From Escherichia phage UGJNEcP1: a stretch of DNA of 64,000 bases. The notes beneath the pieces were generated by a model. It saw nothing but the letters and a program-made list of their open reading frames with translations. It made no database searches and was not told the origin of the DNA. The translations under genes and the position numbers were made by a program. The stretch lies in sequence record OV754623, one strand, 5' to 3'. The number at the start of each line of letters is the position of its first letter. The stretch's first letter is position 1. Below are positions 2,602 to 60,730 of the stretch, in pieces.

Positions 2602-3000
2602 TTACACTCTATTGCTTGATGCTAATTGAAGTTTGATTTGTTCGATATCATCAGGGTTATCTACGACCGAAAATCTAATCTCTACTATAACTGTATAGTC
2701 ATCATATACTGGCGTTACACTTACAGAAAGTTTGTCGATGCGCGGCTCATAGTTACGGACGGCTGCCTGGATATTACGCTCAATCGTATCGGCTGTAAGT
2801 GGTGTCATGTTCTCGAAAAGTTCATCAACCAAATCGCATCCAAATTCTGGGTCGAAGGGGCGTGAGCCTTTTCTAGTTGTCACTATACCAAGAAGACTAT
2901 TTTTAATAGAACGAAGTCCTACAGAACGAGCAACGTCCTTGTTCCAATCCATACGCATTTCTGGGTCGATATCTGAATAAAGTTTATTGATATTAGACAT
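2602..3000 (-). CDS. 25: baseplate wedge protein gp25
   Basis: 132 aa, same length as T4 gp25; synteny uvsY-25-26. Confidence 0.85.
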   Translation of the reverse strand: MSNINKLYSDIDPEMRMDWNKDVARSVGLRSIKNSLLGIVTTRKGSRPFDPEFGCDLVDELFENMTPLTADTIERNIQAAVRNYEPRIDKLSVSVTPVYDDYTVIVEIRFSVVDNPDDIEQIKLQLASSNRV

Positions 3001-3626
3001 TATAGTAACTCAAAGAATTCTTTGAGGCCTCGTATTGTGTGAACATGTGACGCCCCACATTTGGGACATTTAATAGGGGTTGCCAGATAAATTGATGGCG
3101 ATACCAAAAGATTTTTAATATTGATCATGTCATCTTCTGTTATAAGGCCGTAAAGGTCGTTTATTTCAGCTTCAGTTAAATCTTCAACAGGGATGGACTC
3201 TCCATTGACAAAAACGGCCTCAATACATGAAGCAATCATTAATGCGATATTTTTATCGTCAAATAATTTAGGTTGGCGGAACTTAATTTTAATACCACTA
3301 AACGAATACCAGGGATCGGCCTGTTCATCTAATTGAGTGTGCAATAAATTCATATAGACTTGAAATGAATGCCCACAGGAACAATTCCAGGTGTGTTCTT
3401 GATTCACTTCACCTAACGAATGTGCCCACAGATTTACCAACAATAGCTCGGCTTCTTGTTTAGTCAAGTTTTTAGCATTAGAGCAATTAGTGATAATATT
3501 GTTCACTGCTGATTCAATAGTACCGGTAGCCCGCGCACCTATGAGTCCTAAATATTCTTTTAAAGTAAAGGCTCTACAATTCACTTCTTTATCGCCTAAA
3601 CGTACGGTAAACGTATATTTGTACAT
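3000..3626 (-). CDS. 26: baseplate hub subunit gp26
   Basis: 208 aa as T4 gp26; divergent from gene 51 across a shared late-promoter region. Confidence 0.8.
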   Translation of the reverse strand: MYKYTFTVRLGDKEVNCRAFTLKEYLGLIGARATGTIESAVNNIITNCSNAKNLTKQEAELLLVNLWAHSLGEVNQEHTWNCSCGHSFQVYMNLLHTQLDEQADPWYSFSGIKIKFRQPKLFDDKNIALMIASCIEAVFVNGESIPVEDLTEAEINDLYGLITEDDMINIKNLLVSPSIYLATPIKCPKCGASHVHTIRGLKEFFELL

Positions 3627-17707: not shown

Positions 17708-17725
17708 GGGAGACCGAAGTCTCCC
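17708..17725 (-). terminator. intrinsic terminator (GGGAGAC-UUCG-GUCUCCC plus U-run)
   Basis: 7-bp GC-rich stem, UUCG loop, TTTT downstream on the minus strand. Confidence 0.6.
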
Positions 17726-19146: not shown

Positions 19147-19717
19147 AAAAGTTTCGGATTTGTTCCCAATTCAGAGAACGAAGATTATTACGAGAGTACT
19201 GAATTACTTCAATACCAGCTTGTTTAAGAATGTCTGCCCAATTTTCAGGAGATCGGTCATATAATTCTGCATATACAACCTTTTTAATACCTGACTGTGT
19301 AATAGCTTTAGTGCAATCAGGACATGGAGAAAGTGTCGTATACAACGTAGCACCTTCAATAGAATTACCTTTACGAGCTGCAAACAAAATTGCATTCAGT
19401 TCCGCATGGATTTCGTTATTGGCAGACCATGCACTATGAGCAGCCCGATGTTCTTTAGCCAAAACAAAATTATCGGCCCGTCCAAATGCTGTAGTGCCTT
19501 CTTTATGCCCAGCAACGATGACTGGGATTGGTTTATTCTTCAACCAACCATTTTCAGATGCATGTTCGCAACAGTTAACGCCACCTGCAGGTGAACCGTT
19601 ATACCCAGTAGAAATAATGCGCCCATCTTTTTCAATGACTGCGCCAACTTTCCATGAACAACATTTTGATTCTTGAGAAATCAGATATGCAATCTGAAGG
19701 TATGTGCTAGCTTTCAT
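19136..19717 (-). CDS. cd: dCMP deaminase
   Basis: 193 aa as T4 Cd; zinc motifs HAE (HAELNAI) and PCxxC (SPCPDCTKAI). Confidence 0.9.
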   Translation of the reverse strand: MKASTYLQIAYLISQESKCCSWKVGAVIEKDGRIISTGYNGSPAGGVNCCEHASENGWLKNKPIPVIVAGHKEGTTAFGRADNFVLAKEHRAAHSAWSANNEIHAELNAILFAARKGNSIEGATLYTTLSPCPDCTKAITQSGIKKVVYAELYDRSPENWADILKQAGIEVIQYSRNNLRSLNWEQIRNFCGE

Positions 19718-20709
19718 TATTGAACCTTATTAATATAAGTTAACAGCTCTTTAGTTTGTTCCCAACTGATGCACGCATCGGTAACGGAAACGCCATAGGA
19801 CATATTATCAGAAATTTTTTGATTTCCTTCATGTAGGAATGATTCTATCATAATTCCTTTGACCAAATCATTAGCTGCTAAATTTTTACCAATACCAATT
19901 TGATTGCTATAATGCCCATCAGCGTTTGCATGGCTACAGTCAACCATTACATAATGATTCAGACCTACTGCCCTTGCTTTGTTAGAAGCTTCTTGAATAT
20001 CAGAAGAATGATAGTTCGGGCCGTTGGTCCCGCCACGCAATACGATATGCGTATTCTGATTACCTTCAGCTTCAACAATGCCTACAGTACCATCGACGTC
20101 CATACCCATATACCGATGAGGCCAGGCGGCACTATACATCGCGTCTGTAGCTACTTTAATAGAACCATTGGTTGCGTTCTTGAAGCCTACGCACATCGGT
20201 AGACCTGAAGCAATTTCACGATGTGTCTGACTTTCAGTCGTACGGGCGCCAATAGCAACCCATGAGAAAATACCAGAAAGATACTTAATCGTGAATGGGT
20301 CTAATACTTCAGTTGCTAATGGAAGTCCCATACGTAGAAGTTTACGACACAATGTTCGTGCAACTATAAGACCGTGGTTCATATCAAAACTTCCGTCAAG
20401 ATATGGATCATTTACAAGACCTTTCCAACCTACGGTAGTTCGAGGCTTTTCAAAATAAACGCGCATCACTAACAGAACATTAGGAAGACGAGTTTGAAGT
20501 TCAGCCAGACGTTTGCCGTATTCAACAGCAGCAATAGGGTCATGAATTGAACAAGGACCTACAACAATAAGTTTGCGTGGGTCTTCACCGTTCATAATCG
20601 AATTAACTTGTTCGCGATGAGAAGCCACTTGTGATGCGTAAGCTTCCGACAAAGGAATAATCTCAGCTAGTTCTTTTGGAGAAATAAGTTTTCCGACGAC
20701 AGGTAACAT
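19717..20709 (-). CDS. 3-deoxy-D-arabino-heptulosonate-7-phosphate (DAHP) synthase, class I (AroG/AroF/AroH type)
   Basis: 330 aa; GPCSIHDP, MRVYFEKPRTTVGWKGL, AIGARTTESQTHRE; putative metal ligands Cys (GPCS), His (CSHAN), Glu (IESFLHEG), Asp (TDACI), matching E. coli AroG as recalled. Confidence 0.85.
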   Translation of the reverse strand: MLPVVGKLISPKELAEIIPLSEAYASQVASHREQVNSIMNGEDPRKLIVVGPCSIHDPIAAVEYGKRLAELQTRLPNVLLVMRVYFEKPRTTVGWKGLVNDPYLDGSFDMNHGLIVARTLCRKLLRMGLPLATEVLDPFTIKYLSGIFSWVAIGARTTESQTHREIASGLPMCVGFKNATNGSIKVATDAMYSAAWPHRYMGMDVDGTVGIVEAEGNQNTHIVLRGGTNGPNYHSSDIQEASNKARAVGLNHYVMVDCSHANADGHYSNQIGIGKNLAANDLVKGIMIESFLHEGNQKISDNMSYGVSVTDACISWEQTKELLTYINKVQ

Positions 20710-25809: not shown

Positions 25810-25839
25810 ATTGTACCACAATCCTTGTGGTATGTAAAC
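25810..25839 (-). promoter_or_regulatory. T4 early-type promoter (GTTTAC-N18-TACAAT) upstream of rnlA
   Basis: Spacer palindrome CCACAAGGATTGTGG. Confidence 0.5.
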
Positions 25840-26249
25840 TACTTTTTCTTATGTTGGATATTCCAAGGCGGGTTGAACTTTTTGATAAAAAGCGGTTCTT
25901 CAAGGTCCATTGTTGCGATGGTCATTGAACCAAGTTCGTTGGTGACTGAAAGGTCAAAACATTGGCGGGCCCAGAATTCAACCTTTTTGCCTTGCATTAA
26001 GGCATCCAAAATCATAAGTGATTTTCTTGAATCTGAAGTCTGGTCTTTTCGATTTATGGCTGTTCGATAATAGTTAATGCGTTTCTTTAAATTCTTGGTT
26101 TTACCAATATACACAAGTTCGTCATCTATAGCAATAGCATATATGACATTTTTCTTATTAGGGACATCAACTGTTTTAATTGTTGCATCTTCTAATAGCT
26201 CCAATTCTGTATATTTAATAAAGGAATATTCAGCGGCGATATCTTTCAT
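25839..26249 (-). CDS. denA: endonuclease II (GIY-YIG family)
   Basis: 136 aa as T4 EndoII; VIYAIAIDDELVYIGKTKNLKKRINYY GIY-YIG motif. Confidence 0.85.
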   Translation of the reverse strand: MKDIAAEYSFIKYTELELLEDATIKTVDVPNKKNVIYAIAIDDELVYIGKTKNLKKRINYYRTAINRKDQTSDSRKSLMILDALMQGKKVEFWARQCFDLSVTNELGSMTIATMDLEEPLFIKKFNPPWNIQHKKK

Positions 26250-26257
26250 AATAAAGT

Positions 26258-26271
26258 GGGACCGAAGTCCC
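26258..26271 (-). terminator. tetraloop hairpin GGGAC-UUCG-GUCCC between nrdB and denA
   Basis: Lies between an AAGGA SD-like sequence and the denA AUG. Confidence 0.35.
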
Positions 26272-26275
26272 GTCC

Positions 26276-27451
26276 TTAGAAATATTTTTTGTATGAATTG
26301 ATTACATTTTGGTCTACATCATTATCAATTTGTGCGACAAGATAAGAACTGATTTCAACTTCCTGAGGAGCTGCTTGAACTAAATCGGAGTTCAGATATT
26401 CACGAATCCAAGGATATGGATGCTTGGTCGGAGCATCAGTGATTGGGCATGGCAAACCACACTGTTTCATACGAGACACAGTCAAGTAATCAACAAAAGC
26501 ACACATACTCTGCGTATTGATACCTGGACATGTACCGTCTTTAAAGAGGTGTGCAGCCCATTCCTTCTCTTGTCTATTTACTTCCATAAAAATGTCAACT
26601 GCTTCTTGTTCACATTCTTTAGCAATTTGAACCCACTCATCACCATCAGTACCAGATTGAAGTTGACGGATAATATACTGAGTACCCTTGAGGTGGAGTT
26701 GTTCGTCACGAGCAATGAACTTCATAATCTTTGCATTACCTTCCATAATTTCCATATTTTTATGGAAGTTGAAAGTACATGCAAATGATACGTAAAAACG
26801 AATAGCTTCTAAGGCGTTGATAACATGCAAACAGAGATAAAGAGACTTCATTAAATCACGCTTGGCGTTAAACATTATTTCTTCGTACATCTCAATATCA
26901 TTCTGCTGGCATGAGCCTATTGAACACTCGTAAACTTCCTTAGCATTTTCCCAATGACGAGTCTTGACTAGAACATCATCGTAATATTTACCTATTGATT
27001 CAGCTCGTTTCATGATTGCTTCGTCTAATACAATTTCATCAAATACCTTAGATGGGTCAGTATAAAGATTTCGCATGATATGAGTATATGAACGACTGTG
27101 AATAGTTTCACTGAATGTCCATGTTGCAACCCACGTATCTAATGAAGGGTCAGAAATCAGTGCCATAAGTACCGCAGATGGGGCCCTGCCTTGGATAGAA
27201 TCTAATAATGATTGATACTTAAGATTGTTTGTAAAGATGTCCTGTTGGAACTGAGGAAGCTTATTGAACTGCGCAGAGTCCAACATCAAGTTTACCTCTT
27301 CGGGGCGCCAGAAAAATGACAATTGCTTTTCGGTCAAATCTTCAAAAACTTTATGGCGTTGAATATCATAACGCGCAATACCAAGACCAGAACCAAAGAA
27401 CATCGGCTCATTCAAAACATCGACTTGTTGTGTGTTAAAAACTGTACTCAT
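26276..27451 (-). CDS. nrdB: ribonucleotide reductase class Ia beta subunit (no intron)
   Basis: 391-aa continuous ORF; di-iron/tyrosyl radical protein; resembles T4 NrdB. Confidence 0.95.
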   Translation of the reverse strand: MSTVFNTQQVDVLNEPMFFGSGLGIARYDIQRHKVFEDLTEKQLSFFWRPEEVNLMLDSAQFNKLPQFQQDIFTNNLKYQSLLDSIQGRAPSAVLMALISDPSLDTWVATWTFSETIHSRSYTHIMRNLYTDPSKVFDEIVLDEAIMKRAESIGKYYDDVLVKTRHWENAKEVYECSIGSCQQNDIEMYEEIMFNAKRDLMKSLYLCLHVINALEAIRFYVSFACTFNFHKNMEIMEGNAKIMKFIARDEQLHLKGTQYIIRQLQSGTDGDEWVQIAKECEQEAVDIFMEVNRQEKEWAAHLFKDGTCPGINTQSMCAFVDYLTVSRMKQCGLPCPITDAPTKHPYPWIREYLNSDLVQAAPQEVEISSYLVAQIDNDVDQNVINSYKKYF

Positions 27452-32598: not shown

Positions 32599-32616
32599 GG
32601 GAGACCGAAGTCTCCC
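32599..32616 (-). terminator. intrinsic terminator after gene 32 (GGGAGAC-UUCG-GUCUCCC plus U-run)
   Basis: Identical hairpin to 17708..17725; TTTT follows on the minus strand. Confidence 0.6.
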
Positions 32617-33641: not shown

Positions 33642-34295
33642 TTAATACTTACATGATTTGATTGTTTCTATGAACAATTTCTTAGCAGCATTTCCATCGA
33701 TTTGAAGTATTTTTCGATATGCCTTTAATTTGGTAGAATAATTTTGCCAGACTAAATTGTCGGTAAGTTCGTCATGCTTATCTATAATATTCAAGAATGA
33801 ATCTAACAACAAGAAGGTTTCAAATGAAATTATATTGCTTTGTAGCAATTTAAATATGTAGCTCGACTGAACTTTATTATTATAATCAAATATCTCTTGA
33901 AGCGCACTAACTTCCACTTTCTTACTGAAATAGTAGATGTTACGTACGTCTTCAGCAAACGTCTCCTTGGCTTGTTTGAGACGTCCAATGTATTCCCTAT
34001 AGAAAACTAATGCATCAGCGTCTGATATCTCACCAATCCATGCGTCTTGGTTAGCAACTAAGTTGCTTATGAATATCAAGGTGAGTTCCTTCAATTTATA
34101 TTTCTCTGCTAGTTTTTCAAAGAAATATTTATCTCGGCGTTTTTGATACGCATTATCCGAAACACGCATGCACCAGTTATATTTGATTACGTCATACCGA
34201 CCACCAAAATGGTTTTTGCACATCAAGTATAGTTTATATACTGATTTTCCATTAATATAACGTTCTCCATCAGGAGGCATGCGTATTTTAATCAT
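33642..34295 (-). CDS. 59: helicase loader gp59
   Basis: 217 aa as T4 gp59; near-identical segments (DVIKYNWCMRVSD, AWIGEISDADALVFYREYIGRLKQ). Confidence 0.9.
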   Translation of the reverse strand: MIKIRMPPDGERYINGKSVYKLYLMCKNHFGGRYDVIKYNWCMRVSDNAYQKRRDKYFFEKLAEKYKLKELTLIFISNLVANQDAWIGEISDADALVFYREYIGRLKQAKETFAEDVRNIYYFSKKVEVSALQEIFDYNNKVQSSYIFKLLQSNIISFETFLLLDSFLNIIDKHDELTDNLVWQNYSTKLKAYRKILQIDGNAAKKLFIETIKSCKY

Positions 34296-34971
34296 ATTTC
34301 CATCCGGGCCATTTTGAAGATTTAAGTCTATATGTAACTAAAGACGCAGAAATATTAAAAACATTTGAAACTTCTTTACACGAGGCGTATTTTATACCAT
34401 CAATAGTTATAGGTTTTTGTTTTTTAATAGTCCTTTCTCTAGAATGTGGTTTTGAATTTGCTATTCTAAGAGCTTCTTTAGTGGAATCAGGCATCGCCTT
34501 ATTCGTTTTTCTCCCTTTTCGGACTTTACTCAAGGCCAATTTGTGAGCTTCAGATAGTTTCTTACCCTTATTAGGGGACGGTATTTTTCTTTCTAGTCTT
34601 GTTTTAGATACTTTAGCCTTAGTCTCTTCAGATCTAGGTTTACCTAATTTAGAAAGTGAAATGGCCCTTTTAGCTTCATCACTTTGTTTTTTGCCAGGAC
34701 CACCTTTACCACCGGGAACTAAGTTATAAGTATCATCTCGCAAAACAAAATCTTCATTAACCAATTCTGCTTCTTTTTTATAGGCGTCCTTGTCATTATC
34801 ATATTCATAAAGAATTTCGGTATAAAAATTTTTTAGTCCATATTTAGCTTTGGCCGCTAATATAGCGCGGCCTGATCCAATATACCAATCTTTCTCTTTA
34901 TGTTTTTTATGTACGCCTATATAAATTTTACCATTTATTTTATTGGTAGTTTTATACACAACGTATTTCAT
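34288..34971 (-). CDS. GIY-YIG homing endonuclease (Seg/I-TevI-like) with NUMOD3 repeats and C-terminal HTH
   Basis: N-terminal YVVYKTTNKINGKIYIGVHK GIY-YIG motif; repeated basic NUMOD-like motifs; C-terminal helix-turn-helix-like segment. Confidence 0.8.
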   Translation of the reverse strand: MKYVVYKTTNKINGKIYIGVHKKHKEKDWYIGSGRAILAAKAKYGLKNFYTEILYEYDNDKDAYKKEAELVNEDFVLRDDTYNLVPGGKGGPGKKQSDEAKRAISLSKLGKPRSEETKAKVSKTRLERKIPSPNKGKKLSEAHKLALSKVRKGRKTNKAMPDSTKEALRIANSKPHSRERTIKKQKPITIDGIKYASCKEVSNVFNISASLVTYRLKSSKWPGWKYD

Positions 34972-36543: not shown

Positions 36544-36551
36544 TATAAATA
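36544..36551 (+). promoter_or_regulatory. late promoter TATAAATA for gene 34
   Basis: Exact TATAAATA about 30 nt before the gene 34 ATG. Confidence 0.55.
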
Positions 36552-41598: not shown

Positions 41599-41616
41599 GG
41601 GAGACTTCGGTCTCCC
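41599..41616 (+). terminator. intrinsic terminator after gene 35 (GGGAGAC-UUCG-GUCUCCC plus U-run)
   Basis: Hairpin followed by ATTTTTG on the plus strand. Confidence 0.65.
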
Positions 41617-41623
41617 ATTTTTG

Positions 41624-41631
41624 TATAAATA
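41624..41631 (+). promoter_or_regulatory. late promoter TATAAATA for gene 36
   Basis: Exact TATAAATA after the gene 35 terminator, about 25 nt before the gene 36 ATG. Confidence 0.55.
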
Positions 41632-42329: not shown

Positions 42330-45300
42330 ATGGCTACATTAAAACAGATACAATTTAAAAGAAGCAAAGTGGCAGGAGTTAATCCTACTGCAGCACAATT
42401 AGCCGAAGGCGAATTAGCGATAAACTTAAAAGATCGAACTCTTTTTACTAAAGATGACCTCGGTAATATTATTAGCCTAGGCTTTGCTAAGGGTGGGGAT
42501 ATTAACGGTAATGTAACTCAAACTGGCGATTATTTACAAAACGGCACGTATAATCTCAATGGAAATCAGTTTGTTTATGCAGGAAAATACATTGAATTTT
42601 TACCTAAAACCACTGGAAATGGCGCTTGGGCTAACCAACATTCGAATAAAGCCCCTATCTTTACAGATTTAAGTTCAACTACTTCTGTTTCAGAATACCA
42701 TCCACTGATTAAACAACGCTATAAAGATGGAACTTTTTCTGCTGGTACATTAGTAAACGAAGGTAGTTTTAAATTCCATTATATTGATGAAACCGGGACT
42801 TCAAAATACTGGACTTTTAATCGAAACGGTAATTTTCAAGTTGATTCCGGAAGTTTATTAGTATCTAATGGATATTTAGTTACTCAAAGTAATATTGAAA
42901 CTAAAGCTGGTTCTTTAATTGGTCCTAAAGTTATTACCAAAAATATCAATGTGAGCACTAAATCTTGGGACACTAATATTGATACTGCATATGATTTAGT
43001 TTCATTACCGACTTGGCAGTATACTCCAACCGAAACAGATTTGGATACTAATGGTATAAACTACCTTCGTAAATTCCGCGGACATGTTTCTTCTGCTATT
43101 TTCCATGAAGTTGCTGATGCTCGTTCAGGTAAACCACAGAATATTTCGTATTGGACAGGACGTAATGCTGAAGTTTATCAATGGTCTTATACCACAGATG
43201 GGCGTATGTCTGTTGCTAATTCGATAGGTATAGGTCTTGCTGATGTTGGTGACCAAGGACGTTATCCATTGGTTTCGTTTGGTAAAGGTATTGCAATTGG
43301 TGACAATGATACTGGTATTAAATGGGTTCGTGACGGGGTTATCGATTTAGTTGCGAATGGTATTTCTGCCGGCACTATTCTTAATAACGGTATTAACAGT
43401 ACTAAAAAATTGATGGTTGGTTATAGTCGAGATTCTGGTTCTACTTGGGATTACCCAAATAACAACCAAGCAATGTTTACTGCGCGTACCGATGTTGATG
43501 GTAATAATAACGGTGACGGTCAGACTCATATCGGTTATAGTAGCAATGCCAAGATGTATCACTATTTCCGTGGCACTGGTCGTATGTCCGTTAGTATGGG
43601 TGATGGGCTTCTTGTTGAGCCTGGCATTTTAGATATTAAAACCAGTTCAAATAGGGTTGCTATTAGAGCAGATGGTACATTTGACTCAACCCAACGTATT
43701 TCAATGCGTACTGGGTTATTTTTATCAGGTGATGACAATACCAATGCTTTGACATTTAAAGCGCCTACAGGCGTTGACGGGACAAAAACCATTAACTGGG
43801 ATGCAGGTACTCGTAATGGTCAGAATAAAAATACTGTAACCATTAAAGCATGGGGTAACTCATTTAACGCTGAAAAGGGTAATAGAGAAACTGTATTTGA
43901 AGTATCAGATTCACAAGGTTATTATTTTTATGCTCAACGTACCAACCCGGCTTCTGGTGAAACAGTAGGTCCTGTTAACTTTAAATTTAACGGAACTGTC
44001 GAAACAGGCCATATCATAGGCCTTGGTAATATAAGTGCCTCCGGTACAGGTTCTTTTGGTGGCAATGTTACCATGACTAATGGCCTGTTTGTCCAAGGTG
44101 GTTCTTCTATTACAGGCCAAGTTAAAATTGGTGGAACAGCTGATGCATTAAGAATTTGGAATGCTGAATACGGTGCTATTTTCCGTCGTTCTGAAGATAA
44201 GCTTTATATTATTCCAACCCCGCAGAATGCTGGCGAATCAGGTGGTATTTCTAATTTACGTCCGTTCTATATTACATTAAGTACCGGTAAAGTTTCTATG
44301 GACCATGATGTAGATATCGGTGGTGGAATATTTAAAGTAGAAACTAGTGGAACAACAGCAGGGAAACGTATTACAGTTAATGCGGCGTCAGATGCTATTA
44401 GAATAAATGCCCCAACGCAAGAGTCTTCTAACTTTATTCAAGGACGTAAAGCAGATGTTACAAAATGGTATTTAGGTATTGGCGATGGCGGCAACGTCGT
44501 TCGTATGCATAGTTACACCTATTCACATGGTATTGCACTGAATTCTGATACTGTCGATATTACTAAACCATTAAAAGTTGGTAATGCTCAATTCGGTACT
44601 GATGGTAATATCACTGGTGGTTCTGGTAATTTTGCTAACTTGAATACCACAATAAATAACCTTAAGACAGATATTGTCTCAAGTTATCCAATTGGTGCTC
44701 CGATTCCTTGGCCTACTGATACACCTCCTGAAGGTTATGCCATAATGGAAGGCCAGACGTTTGATACTGACTTGTATCCTAAGTTAGCTGCGGTGTATCC
44801 TTCCGGCGCTCTGCCTGATATGCGCGGTCAAACTATCAAGGGTAAACCATCCGGGCGTGCTGTATTAAGTACAGAAGCAGACGGTGTTAAGTCACATAGC
44901 CATAGTGCAAGTGCGTCAAGCACGGATTTAGGTACTAAGACCACTTCTAGTTTTGATTACGGTAGCAAAACGACTTCAAGCTTTGATTATGGTACTAAAA
45001 CCAGTAATACTACTGGTAACCATAACCATACAGTGAGTGGTAATACTAGTGCCGCTGGTAATCACCAGCACTCACAGACAGGCCCAAGAGGACCTAGTAA
45101 CCAACCGACCGGGATATTTCCTAATGGGGCTACTCTAATTAGTGGGACTCAGGTTATTAGTTTTGGCCTAAGCAACGGTATCGTGCCTGGTACAAGCCAA
45201 TATATTGCAAAGTCGTCAACAGAAGGTAACCATACCCATAGTTGGTCAGGAACTACTAGCGCTACTGGTAACCATGCCCATACGGTAGGTATTGGTGCTC

Positions 45301-45443
45301 ATACCCATTCGGTAGGTATTGGTGCTCATTCTCATACTGTTGCAATTGGTTCCCATGGGCATACAATAACTGTAAATGCCACAGGAAATACAGAAAACAC
45401 TGTTAAAAACGTTGCTTTTAACTATATCGTTCGTTTAGCATAA
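42330..45443 (+). CDS. 37: long tail fibre distal subunit gp37 (receptor-binding tip)
   Basis: 1037 aa; C-terminal His-x-His repeats ([22 protein letters not shown]) typical of the T4 gp37 needle domain. Confidence 0.9.
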
Positions 45444-45449
45444 GGAGAA

Positions 45450-45463
45450 GGGACTTCGGTCCC
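45450..45463 (+). terminator. hairpin GGGAC-UUCG-GUCCC plus U-run after gene 37, within the gene 38 translation initiation region
   Basis: Follows the gene 37 stop; sits between an AAGGAG SD and the gene 38 AUG. Confidence 0.55.
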
Positions 45464-45473
45464 TTTTTATAAT

Positions 45474-46025
45474 ATGAAACTCTATCACTATTATTTTGAC
45501 ACTAAAGAATTTTACAAAGAAGAAAATTATAAACCATTAAAAGGCGTAGGATTTCCGGCTCATTCGACACCAAAAAAACCTTTAGACCCTAAAGAAGGCT
45601 ATGCTGTTATATTTGACGAACGCGAGCAAGAATGGGTATATGTTGAAGACCATCGTGGAAAAACAGTATGGACTTATGATAAGCAAAAAATTGTTATTGA
45701 CACTCCAGGTGCTCTTCAAAATGTTACTACAGAAGAACCTGGTGAATTTGACATTTGGACCGACGACGGGTGGAAGGAAGATGAAGCATATAAACGCGTA
45801 GTTCAACGTGATAAGAAAATTCATGAACTCTATAAATTATTCAGTGTTTTAAGTTCTCTTATTGACGCAGAGGTTGCTAATAGAGAAGAAAAACGAAAAT
45901 TTAAAGAGCTCAAAAAATTCTTTGCCCTTTTAGAAAAACATGAACATCTTGGCGGCGAATTCCCTAAATTCCCTGACCTTGAAAAAAAATCTATTGTCAA
46001 AGCGATTATAAATATCTTTAAGTAA
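45474..46025 (+). CDS. 38: tail fibre assembly chaperone gp38 (T4 type)
   Basis: 183 aa as T4 gp38; near-identical N-terminus (HYYFDTKEFYKEENYKP). Confidence 0.85.
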   Translation: MKLYHYYFDTKEFYKEENYKPLKGVGFPAHSTPKKPLDPKEGYAVIFDEREQEWVYVEDHRGKTVWTYDKQKIVIDTPGALQNVTTEEPGEFDIWTDDGWKEDEAYKRVVQRDKKIHELYKLFSVLSSLIDAEVANREEKRKFKELKKFFALLEKHEHLGGEFPKFPDLEKKSIVKAIINIFK

Positions 46026-46034
46026 GGAGGTATT

Positions 46035-46697
46035 ATGGCAACACCAAAAGTGTCATTTTCGCCTAGTGATATTCTATTTGGGTTGCTAGATCGTATTTTC
46101 AAAGATAACGCTACTGGAAAGGTTTTAATGTCCCGAGTAGCGGTAATTATTCTTTTGTTCCTAATGGCACTAATATGGTACAAAGGAAGTATTTTGCTGG
46201 ATTATTATGTAAGAGCTAAGTATGATACTTATACTGAAATAATCCAAAAAGAACGAGCTTTACGTTTTGAATCTGCGGCTCTAGAACAACTGCAAATAGT
46301 TCATATCTCATCTGGTGCAGATTTTAGTGCTGTGTATTCTTTCAGACCTAAAAACTTAAATTATTTTGTCGACCTTATAGCTTATGAAGGCAAACTACCT
46401 AGCACAATTTCTGAAAAGTCGCTTGGTGGATTCCCGGTGGATAAAACGGCTAATGAATATATAATTCATTTAAGTGGCCGTCATTTCTCATCTAAATCAG
46501 AATTTGCATTTTTGCCTACAAAATCTAAGACTGCCGAACTTTCTTATATGTATAGTTGTCCATACTTTAATTTGGATAACATCTATGCTGGAACTGTGGC
46601 GATGTATTGGTATAAGGGGAATAATAATATACTTGAGGAAGATCGCTTAGCGGCTATATGCAACCAAGCGATCCGAATACTAGGAAGGGCTAAATAA
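46035..46697 (+). CDS. t: holin T
   Basis: 220 aa; single N-terminal transmembrane segment; near-identical to T4 holin as recalled. Confidence 0.9.
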   Translation: MATPKVSFSPSDILFGLLDRIFKDNATGKVLMSRVAVIILLFLMALIWYKGSILLDYYVRAKYDTYTEIIQKERALRFESAALEQLQIVHISSGADFSAVYSFRPKNLNYFVDLIAYEGKLPSTISEKSLGGFPVDKTANEYIIHLSGRHFSSKSEFAFLPTKSKTAELSYMYSCPYFNLDNIYAGTVAMYWYKGNNNILEEDRLAAICNQAIRILGRAK

Positions 46698-46970
46698 TTA
46701 GTTGTTAGAATACATCGCTAAATGACGATAAATATTTTCAAAACCTTCATTGAATTCACTAATCAGTGTTTTCTTTTCTTCGGCAGTTAAATTTGTAATT
46801 AGTTTTCTAAAAGAATTCTGATTTAGCTGCCGACCATCTTTTTTAATTCCAATCTCATTCAAGAATCCGATGAAACTTGCTCGGTCTTCAACAATATCTT
46901 CCCTAGAGAATTTAATCAAAATAGAAGCAATAGTAATAATTTCACGTACAATTTCAATATCTTTATTCAT
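46698..46970 (-). CDS. asiA: anti-sigma70 factor AsiA
   Basis: 90 aa as T4 AsiA; near-identical (ILIKFSREDIVE, FLNEIG). Confidence 0.85.
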   Translation of the reverse strand: MNKDIEIVREIITIASILIKFSREDIVEDRASFIGFLNEIGIKKDGRQLNQNSFRKLITNLTAEEKKTLISEFNEGFENIYRHLAMYSNN

Positions 46971-53763: not shown

Positions 53764-53779
53764 GGGGACCGAAGTCCCC
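53764..53779 (-). terminator. intrinsic terminator after rIIB (GGGGAC-UUCG-GUCCCC plus U-run)
   Basis: Hairpin followed by TTTTTCTTT on the minus strand. Confidence 0.6.
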
Positions 53780-60270: not shown

Positions 60271-60286
60271 AAGGGCCGAAGCCCTT
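60271..60286 (-). terminator. intrinsic terminator (AAGGGC-UUCG-GCCCUU plus U-run)
   Basis: Hairpin followed by TTTTTGC on the minus strand, between gene 39 and the ORF at 60285..60728. Confidence 0.55.
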
Positions 60287-60728
60287 ATTTAAATTTAATT
60301 TTCTGAAGTGCATCAATTGCAGCTAAACGCCCTTGTTCACTTTTAACTGTAATGACCACATCGCCTGATACGATCACCGAACCATCAACAAATTCTATAG
60401 AGCCTTTTTTGAAATCGACAGCTGTATCTGGTTCCGGAACTTCTTCAAAGAATTTAAATTCTGCACCATAAATCAGAATATCACCTTGCATACTAATGAT
60501 TGTACGTCTAGGTCCATCGGTTTCAGCGGCAATCATTGAAACACCATAACCAATCATCTCTTCTACAATAAAATCTCTTGATAATAAAACTGTATGCAGA
60601 GTAGTGTTAAGACGTTTACCAGTTGTATTAAGAATTCTCAAGAAATTATCTTCTTGACCTTTGATAATACGATATTTCTTACCAACTTCAAAACCTTTAA
60701 AACCTTTAAAAGCCGTATTAAAAGCCAT
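60285..60728 (-). CDS. hypothetical protein
   Basis: ORF track; terminator hairpin at its 3' end. Confidence 0.5.
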   Translation of the reverse strand: MAFNTAFKGFKGFEVGKKYRIIKGQEDNFLRILNTTGKRLNTTLHTVLLSRDFIVEEMIGYGVSMIAAETDGPRRTIISMQGDILIYGAEFKFFEEVPEPDTAVDFKKGSIEFVDGSVIVSGDVVITVKSEQGRLAAIDALQKIKFK

Positions 60729-60730
60729 AA

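Follow-up and report, generated by a model that had tools for sequence, protein, structure and literature searches.

Candidate split initiation regions with a tetraloop hairpin between Shine-Dalgarno sequence and start codon at gene 38 and denA of Escherichia phage UGJNEcP1

How are two genes translated whose strong Shine-Dalgarno (SD) sequence lies far upstream of the start codon, with a stable hairpin in between? The question is raised by gene 38 and denA in a stretch of 64,000 nucleotides (nt) of Escherichia phage UGJNEcP1 (record OV754623), analysed as a whole and referred to here as the window. The window is that of a Mosigvirus-type T-even phage; it is collinear with and near-identical to Escherichia phage UGJNEcP2 (Mosigvirus, Tevenvirinae), with 99.9% identity across 45000-46500, coordinates equal base for base to about 60.3 kb, and a 12-nt offset beyond. 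Gene 38 (45474..46025, plus strand), an open reading frame (ORF) of 183 amino acids (aa) downstream of gene 37 (42330..45443), is annotated in the 99.9%-identical genome as a tail fibre assembly protein, and its product shares the N-terminus MKLYHYYFDT with T4 gp38. The ORF of denA (25839..26249, minus strand), 136 aa long, lies downstream of nrdB (26276..27451), and the N-terminus of its product, MKDIAAEYSFIKY, is conserved among relatives. An earlier reading of the sequence, called here the original prediction, had named the two genes 38 and denA, and both names proved right, given the tail fibre assembly annotation and the match of the window DenA to T4 endonuclease II (PDB 2WSH, E 1.4e-67). 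Both sites are likely to be split (discontinuous) initiation regions like those of T4 genes 38 and 25 (Uzan and Miller 2010, PMC3014915). Their parts are as follows.

45441..45447, plus strand: UAAGGAG, in which the gene 37 stop codon UAA (45441-45443) overlaps the SD sequence AAGGAG (45442-45447)
45448-45449, plus strand: AA between AAGGAG and the core stem, A-U paired in the 7-base-pair (bp) stem
45450-45463, plus strand: core hairpin GGGAC-UUCG-GUCCC, with arms at 45450-45454 and 45459-45463 and the loop at 45455-45458
45448..45465, plus strand: 7-bp hairpin AAGGGAC-UUCG-GUCCCUU, consisting of 5 G-C-rich pairs and two A-U pairs
45464-45473, plus strand: spacer TTTTTATAAT (also written UUUUUAUAAU), the 10 nt after the core stem, read from the sequence
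45466..45476, plus strand: A/U-rich spacer UUUAUAAU (8 nt beyond the 7-bp stem) and the gene 38 AUG (45474-45476)
26272..26278, minus strand: UAAGGAC, in which the nrdB stop codon UAA (26278-26276) overlaps the SD-like AAGGA (26277-26273), followed by an unpaired C (26272)
26258..26271, minus strand: hairpin GGGAC-UUCG-GUCCC (GGGACTTCGGTCCC), identical to the gene 38 core, found by folding and covariation and terminator-like in a scan
26247..26257, minus strand: spacer ACTTTATT (the same as ACUUUAUU), 8 nt (26257-26250), and the denA AUG (26249-26247)

At gene 38, 30 nt lie between the gene 37 stop codon and the AUG, and ATG 45474 is the first in-frame start of the ORF, with no alternative start further upstream. 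The distance from AAGGAG to AUG, put at about 26 nt in the original prediction, was indeed 26 nt in line, and is 8 nt with the 7-bp stem looped out. Pairing of UAAGGAG with the 16S 3' end was calculated at -9.0 kcal/mol. The stable GGGAC-UUCG-GUCCC hairpin that had been claimed for the gap was recovered, its core folding at -9.0 kcal/mol, and the 50-nt context folded at -15.7 kcal/mol (z -3.8), a stability equalled by 0/200 shuffles. In the minimum-energy fold the stem grows to 10 bp (45445-45468), GAGAA being paired with UUUUU through G-U and A-U pairs.

At denA, 26 nt lie between the nrdB stop codon and the AUG, and no in-frame ATG, GTG or TTG occurs in the ORF upstream of ATG 26249. AAGGA is 23 nt from the AUG in line and 9 nt from it with the hairpin looped out; the duplex of UAAGGA with the 16S 3' end was -5.6 to -5.7 kcal/mol, and the 50-nt context folded at -10.5 kcal/mol (z -1.5), with AAGG paired with CUUU by extension of the stem and the AUG itself unmasked. 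The assertion that the gene 38 layout is repeated before denA held, since the SD, the same 14-mer, 8 nt and the AUG are all present; the range assigned to it, 26249..26276, was short by one base of AAGGA. Folding of the two sites, which had been named as a check, gave stable hairpins at both, but did not leave the SD free, part of it being predicted to be paired.

The best SD duplex located 0-12 nt from the start was -2.4 kcal/mol at both gene 38 and denA, versus a median of -5.7 kcal/mol for 93 annotated starts, in agreement with the claim that gene 38 has no normally spaced SD, and no hidden SD was found between hairpin and AUG at either gene. The window contains 3 exact copies of the 14-mer, and 6 copies with at most 2 mismatches were found versus 0.08 expected. 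A scan of both strands of the 64 kb for the complete arrangement (an SD, a hairpin with 5 or more Watson-Crick pairs, a gap of 5-10 nt and an ATG) returned exactly 2 sites, gene 38 and denA, whereas 100 dinucleotide shuffles gave a mean of 0.02 and none with 2; both layouts are far beyond chance. When 92 annotated starts were screened for a weak near SD with a strong far SD and the gap was then folded, a stable gap-filling hairpin was present in 3 genes only, namely gene 25, denA and gene 38, while three other starts were weak passes of the SD thresholds. When all of the T4 genome was scanned for the layout without recourse to annotation, 6 matches were obtained; 3 were true gene starts, again those of genes 25, 38 and denA, and of the remaining 3 one was an antisense ORF and two were internal ATGs in frame. 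Also in T4, an internal in-frame ATG of gene 37 (NC_000866.4, 157598, plus strand) is preceded by GAGGA, CCAAG-GCGCAA-CUUGG and AUA, probably by chance. In the window, a homing endonuclease gene (34288..34971, minus strand) and asiA (46698..46970, minus strand) have no recognisable SD within 12 nt and no bridging hairpin. Rfam at the gathering threshold yielded no family in the window.

The cassette of SD, hairpin, spacer and AUG was kept in all of the 12 T4-type gene 37-38 junctions compared, UAAGGAG being identical in 12/12. The gene 38 stem varied only between GGGAC/GUCCC and GGGGC/GCCCC, a single compensatory pair, and one junction had a UUCU loop. Much greater variation was seen at denA, for which 42 IMG/VR loci with DenA 57-100% identical to that of the window were compared. 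The cassette, in the form UAAGG(A/G), hairpin, 6-10 nt and AUG, was present in 41 of these in at least 12 stem or loop versions, including the stems GGGAC, AGGGC, GAGGGC, GGGGC, GGGCC, UAGGGC, CAGGGC, GGGAGAC, GGGAG and others, and the loops UUCG, GCAA, GUAA, UUUG, UUAG and CUUGA. T4 denA itself has the same design with another hairpin, UAAGGAG-U-GGGCC-GCAA-GGCCC-A-UUUUAUU-AUG. In essentially all cassettes the SD shares bases with the stop codon of the upstream gene, and UAAGG(A) stands directly before the denA hairpin in nearly all relatives. In an alignment of 26 distinct denA junctions, 95.5% of the stem cells were paired and 4 of the 6 pairs were altered on both sides (27 cells); the covariation score was matched by none of 500 shuffles, and sliding the partner by one column lowered the pairing to 64-70%.

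The spacing was conserved as well. The denA SD lies 21-28 nt from the AUG in line, and with the Watson-Crick stem looped out the distance was 6-10 nt in 25 of 26 cassettes (median 8); for gene 38 the looped-out spacing was 6-10 nt in 6/6 cassettes. Ordinary window genes with a clear SD (n=61) had spacings of 3-11 nt (median 6), a range that includes the looped-out values of gene 38 (8 nt) and denA (9 nt) in the window. Both sites therefore have the features of the split class, that is, no near SD, a strong SD more than 15 nt upstream, a hairpin filling the gap, and conservation with compensatory changes.

Some relatives carry the hairpin in another design. T2-type phages have an unrelated gene 38 and keep a GGGGC-UUCG-GCCCC hairpin after gene 37; in these (L094, L096) a canonical SD, GGAGG, follows the hairpin 5 nt from the AUG (GGAGGUUUAU-AUG). 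RB49 denA (L101, 590-640) likewise has the hairpin and then a canonical SD 3 nt from the AUG (GAGGAAAGGAUA-AUG). Because the SD comes after the hairpin in T2-type gene 38 and RB49 denA, an SD at a workable distance from the AUG seems to be needed in every design, and the upstream UAAGGA(G) is thus taken as the SD that functions in the split design. Relatives alternate between this split arrangement and the hairpin-then-SD design. The distant DenA-like proteins (L088-L093) are encoded in a context that is not T4-like, with no cassette.

Two further loci are recorded for their hairpins. In Salmonella phage Lv5cm (L040, MZ150757.1, about 245-348) about 78 nt of the 37-38 junction, reaching from the hairpin to nucleotide 54 of gene 38, are tandemly duplicated; TAG closes the first copy immediately ahead of the second hairpin, which no SD precedes, and recombination at the hairpin or an assembly artefact is possible. 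In the T5-like phage FFH1 (L095, D11-D12), the D11 stop codon is followed by a near-identical hairpin, GAGGGGC-UUCG-GCCCCU, which lies 14 nt from the next AUG and has no clear SD after it; this may be a case of the design beyond the T4 group.

The window gene 38 site is a variant of an element already known in T4, and denA is a well-supported candidate for a further member alongside T4 genes 38 and 25, its function as a split site being suggested by anatomy, covariation and spacing. By analogy with T4, translation of denA and of the window gene 38 would depend on the hairpin. The gene 38 messenger RNA (mRNA) would start at the late promoter before gene 36 and that of denA at the nrdA/nrdB promoters, so that both include the hairpin. 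The 30S subunit would pair with the UAAGGA(G) that overlaps the stop codon of the upstream gene, while the compact tetraloop hairpin would remain folded and bulge out, giving a path from SD to AUG of about 8-9 nt instead of 23-26 nt, within the range of ordinary genes. Because the SD includes the stop codon and its 3' half can be paired by the stem, ribosomes finishing gene 37 or nrdB probably open the structure and favour initiation downstream, which would amount to coupling. The hairpin and its U-rich tail may in addition stop some transcripts or shield the 3' end of the upstream mRNA; this would hold the chaperone gp38 and the nuclease endonuclease II (EndoII) below the levels of gp37 and NrdB. 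EndoII has been described as toxic.

Several observations weigh against split initiation regions at the two genes. The looped-out spacing is 8-9 nt, or greater when helix width is added, which places it high in the normal range and off the optimum. Some denA cassettes have a weak SD, UAAGG or UAAGAG, with duplexes of -1.7 to -3.9 kcal/mol. One relative (L079, IMGVR_UViG_2974786931_000001, 371-404) has no cassette, the sole such nrdB-denA locus; its nrdB ends AAA UAC UUA UGA and overlaps the denA AUG as AUGA, although a close relative, L077, carries a cassette whose loop has 5 nt (GGGAG-CUUGA-CUCCC). The 3' half of the SD is predicted to be mostly paired, and such pairing alone would inhibit initiation. 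Finally, the hairpin looks like a weak terminator and occurs apart from the split design, four other copies in the window being terminator-like, so that bridging may be a tolerated side effect.

The last of these points leads to an alternative in which the hairpin is chiefly an intrinsic terminator or a 3'-end stabiliser for gene 37 and nrdB mRNA, and the downstream gene is translated by termination-reinitiation; the purine run would then be the A-tract of the terminator or serve to retain the ribosome, and no bridging of a free 30S subunit by the hairpin would be needed. This is unlikely as the chief explanation, yet much of the sequence around the hairpins fits it. The four stand-alone copies, members of the G(G/A)GAC-UUCG-GUC(U/C)C family, are identical or near-identical UUCG hairpins after stop codons with U tracts:

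17710-17723, minus strand: UUCG hairpin after a stop codon, with a U tract, terminator-like
32601-32614, minus strand: UUCG hairpin after a stop codon, with a U tract, terminator-like
41601-41614, plus strand: UUCG hairpin at genes 35/36, after a stop codon, with a U tract, followed by the late promoter TATAAATA at 41624
53765-53778, minus strand: UUCG hairpin after a stop codon, with a U tract, terminator-like

A predicted terminator is conserved at the gene 35/36 place in six T4-like genomes (PMC1524935), ahead of the late promoter at 41624. The gene 38 and denA hairpins too combine a G-C stem with a U-rich sequence (UUUUUAUA and ACUUUAUU, respectively), and both are labelled terminators by other annotators, that of gene 38 as 'putative transcriptional terminator' in MK327934.1 and MK327933.1. 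The terminator scan listed the denA hairpin; that of gene 38 was unlisted, extension of the stem consuming the U tract. In the same direction point T2-type gene 38 and RB49 denA, which hold the hairpin and yet have a normal SD after it, the overlap of SD and stop codon in all cassettes, and the homologous gene pairs with direct overlap, lambda stf/tfa (TAATG) and nrdB/denA of L079 (ATGA).

Other features do not fit termination as the main role. Of the six related copies in the window, 2 sit between an SD and its AUG, whereas the stand-alone copies with a downstream start in view (41601 and 53765) have an ordinary SD before that start; the stems of gene 38 and denA are 5 bp long, shorter than the 7-bp stand-alone stems. 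Neither gene 38 nor denA has its own promoter: one between hairpin and gene was considered and rejected, there being no room with the AUG 8-10 nt away. Exact late promoters TATAAATA on the plus strand were found only at 36544, 41624 and 46007, and none lies within gene 37, where three one-mismatch matches (42720, 43826 and 44651) are upstream of the hairpin. As no promoter fits between hairpin and AUG, the mRNA of gene 38 and of denA must read through the hairpin, and an efficient terminator would abolish expression of both. The proposal in the original prediction that the hairpin also terminates gene 37 transcripts is accordingly plausible for partial termination and fails for complete termination; at both sites a terminator role is plausible, but at most a partial one. 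Termination alone, moreover, leaves unexplained the narrow range of hairpin-AUG distances and the conserved non-coding AAGG 5' of the stem, and initiation at T4 gene 38 falls when the structure is destabilised (PMC3014915). Termination is in any case largely compatible with split initiation rather than exclusive of it.

Far less probable is a mainly inhibitory structure, in which pairing between the U-rich spacer and the SD's 3' half would keep EndoII and the catalytic chaperone gp38 low, much as at T4 genes e, soc, 49 and I-TevI, where hairpins mask the SD. Inhibitory structures of this masking type have been documented for T4 (PMC3014915), and in the minimum-energy folds GAG or GG of the SD is paired at both sites and in T4, where the equivalent stems likewise extend into the SD; at both window sites the 3' bases of the SD have a probability of being unpaired of only 0.01-0.13. 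Freeing the SD from the extension costs 2.8-6.3 kcal/mol. The extension nevertheless consists of weak A-U and G-U pairs and its cost is below the SD:anti-SD gain of -5.6 to -9.0 kcal/mol, the denA AUG is unmasked, and a purine-rich SD beside a U-rich spacer pairs in any folding program, which makes the prediction unspecific. Nor is there an alternative promoter for an unmasked transcript, as in control of the gene e type, and the published result for T4 gene 38 is the opposite, the structure enhancing initiation (PMC3014915). Concerted evolution of the two hairpins was also considered; they are identical here but differ within T4 and within the contig bearing L002 and L074. A RegB target (GGAG in early-gene SD sequences) fails as a general explanation, the window denA having AAGGAC and many relatives AAGGU or AAGGAA.

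Returning to split initiation at both genes, gene 38 shows natural variation on a textbook element, namely a longer spacer and one stem pair altered in compensation, and otherwise nothing new, and the mechanism itself will not surprise specialists. denA would bring the hairpin-bridged ribosome sites of T4 from two to three. A mention of the split arrangement at denA, or of denA translation initiation, was not found in the searchable literature, although an older mention is possible; a search for mapped transcript ends likewise yielded none for this phage or for T4. A more far-reaching proposal, put forward tentatively and somewhat doubtful, is that denA is an unrecognised third functional member of the T-even split-SD sites, present in more genera than gene 25, and that the cassette is a portable module of dual purpose. 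If so, the module would start at the stop codon of an abundant product, stop or stabilise some of the transcripts, and pass a set fraction of ribosomes to a gene needed at a low level; it would be evolutionarily interchangeable with a stop-start overlap (stf/tfa, L079) or with a hairpin followed by an SD (T2-type gene 38, RB49 denA). The denA series amounts to natural mutagenesis: besides 12 or more versions of the stem or loop, it includes a clean deletion (the ATGA overlap) and a case with the SD behind the hairpin, and it is useful for the question of how the ribosome accommodates a folded hairpin between SD and start codon. Gene callers and terminator predictors see such cassettes only as terminators.

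The comparison also calls into question the RefSeq start of T4 denA. In NC_000866.4 (L034, 137517..137951), denA is annotated with 144 codons from GTG 137951, directly after AAGGA and inside the cassette. This GTG is missing from the window and from most relatives, and the upstream GTG of RefSeq T4 denA and an upstream ATG of some relatives were rejected as starts, neither being conserved; the cassette is 26 nt long in the window versus 27 in T4, so that the reading frame is not maintained. In the crystal structure (2WSH) the EndoII chain consists of 136 residues beginning with MKEIATEY, preceded by an N-terminal extension of 7 residues. Judged from the aligned loci, ATG 137927 (136 aa) appears the better-supported start of T4 denA over the RefSeq GTG.

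Elsewhere in the window, the region of about 60300-60730 contains the start of the 12-nt shift relative to OV877511.1, and for the annotated ORF 60285..60716 no intact ORF with an ATG start was re-found within 20 nt of the annotated position. The gene at 19717..20709 (minus strand) is annotated as aroF (Tyr-sensitive DAHP synthase) in the near-identical OV877511.1, an unusual metabolic gene for a T-even phage; T4 has no annotation at the corresponding place beside cd (dCMP deaminase).

Among known systems the closest is T4 gene 38, whose split initiation region is reportedly owed to Gold and co-workers in the 1980s. The T4 37-38 junction is UAAGGAGAGGGGCUUCGGCCCUUCUAAAUAUG, and the published SD-AUG distance of 22 nt, cut to 5 nt by the structure, was reproduced by the spacing measure used here; mutations that destabilise the structure lower initiation at the T4 split sites (PMC3014915). 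This source, which concerns the orthologous junction, bears out the mention in the original prediction of a split SD at T4 gene 38. The window and T4 share the end of gene 37, the overlap of UAAGGAG with the stop codon, the C(UUCG)G hairpin, a short A/U spacer and the 183-aa gp38. They differ in the stem, GGGGC/GCCC(U) in T4 versus GGGAC/GUCCC in the window, in the spacer, UUUUUAUAAU in the window being longer than UUCUAAAU in T4, and consequently in distance, 26 versus 22 nt in line and about 8 versus 5 nt looped out.

The second known case is T4 gene 25, in which the structure cuts the SD-AUG distance from 27 nt to 11 nt (PMC3014915). The corresponding site of the window, upstream of gene 25 (2602..3000), is as follows.

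3000..3031, minus strand: gene 25 split site within the end of gene 26, consisting of GAGG, CUCAAAG-AAUU-CUUUGAG, UUACUAUA and AUG

Here the gene 26 stop codon overlaps the gene 25 AUG as UAAUG. The site resembles those of gene 38 and denA in the far-upstream SD, the hairpin between and the 8 nt to the AUG. However, both its SD and its hairpin, with an A/U-rich stem and an AAUU loop, fall within gene 26 coding sequence, whereas at gene 38 and denA the cassette is non-coding, rich in G-C and terminator-like, has a tetraloop, and starts with the stop codon of the preceding gene.

C(UUCG)G tetraloop hairpins in intercistronic regions of T4 are said to have been reported by Tuerk et al. in 1988. 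Like them, the hairpins described here are intercistronic, with a cUUCGg loop closing a short G-C stem; six related copies are present in the window, but most copies are plain gene-end hairpins followed by an ordinary SD. Stop-start overlap, as in lambda stf/tfa (UAAUG) and nrdB/denA of L079 (AUGA), involves the same or homologous gene pairs, the end of lambda stf being homologous to that of gene 37, and the downstream gene again comes soon after the upstream stop codon and has no promoter of its own. At gene 38 and denA of the window, in contrast, stop and start codons neither overlap nor abut, an SD and a hairpin being inserted in the gaps of 30 nt and 26 nt, respectively.

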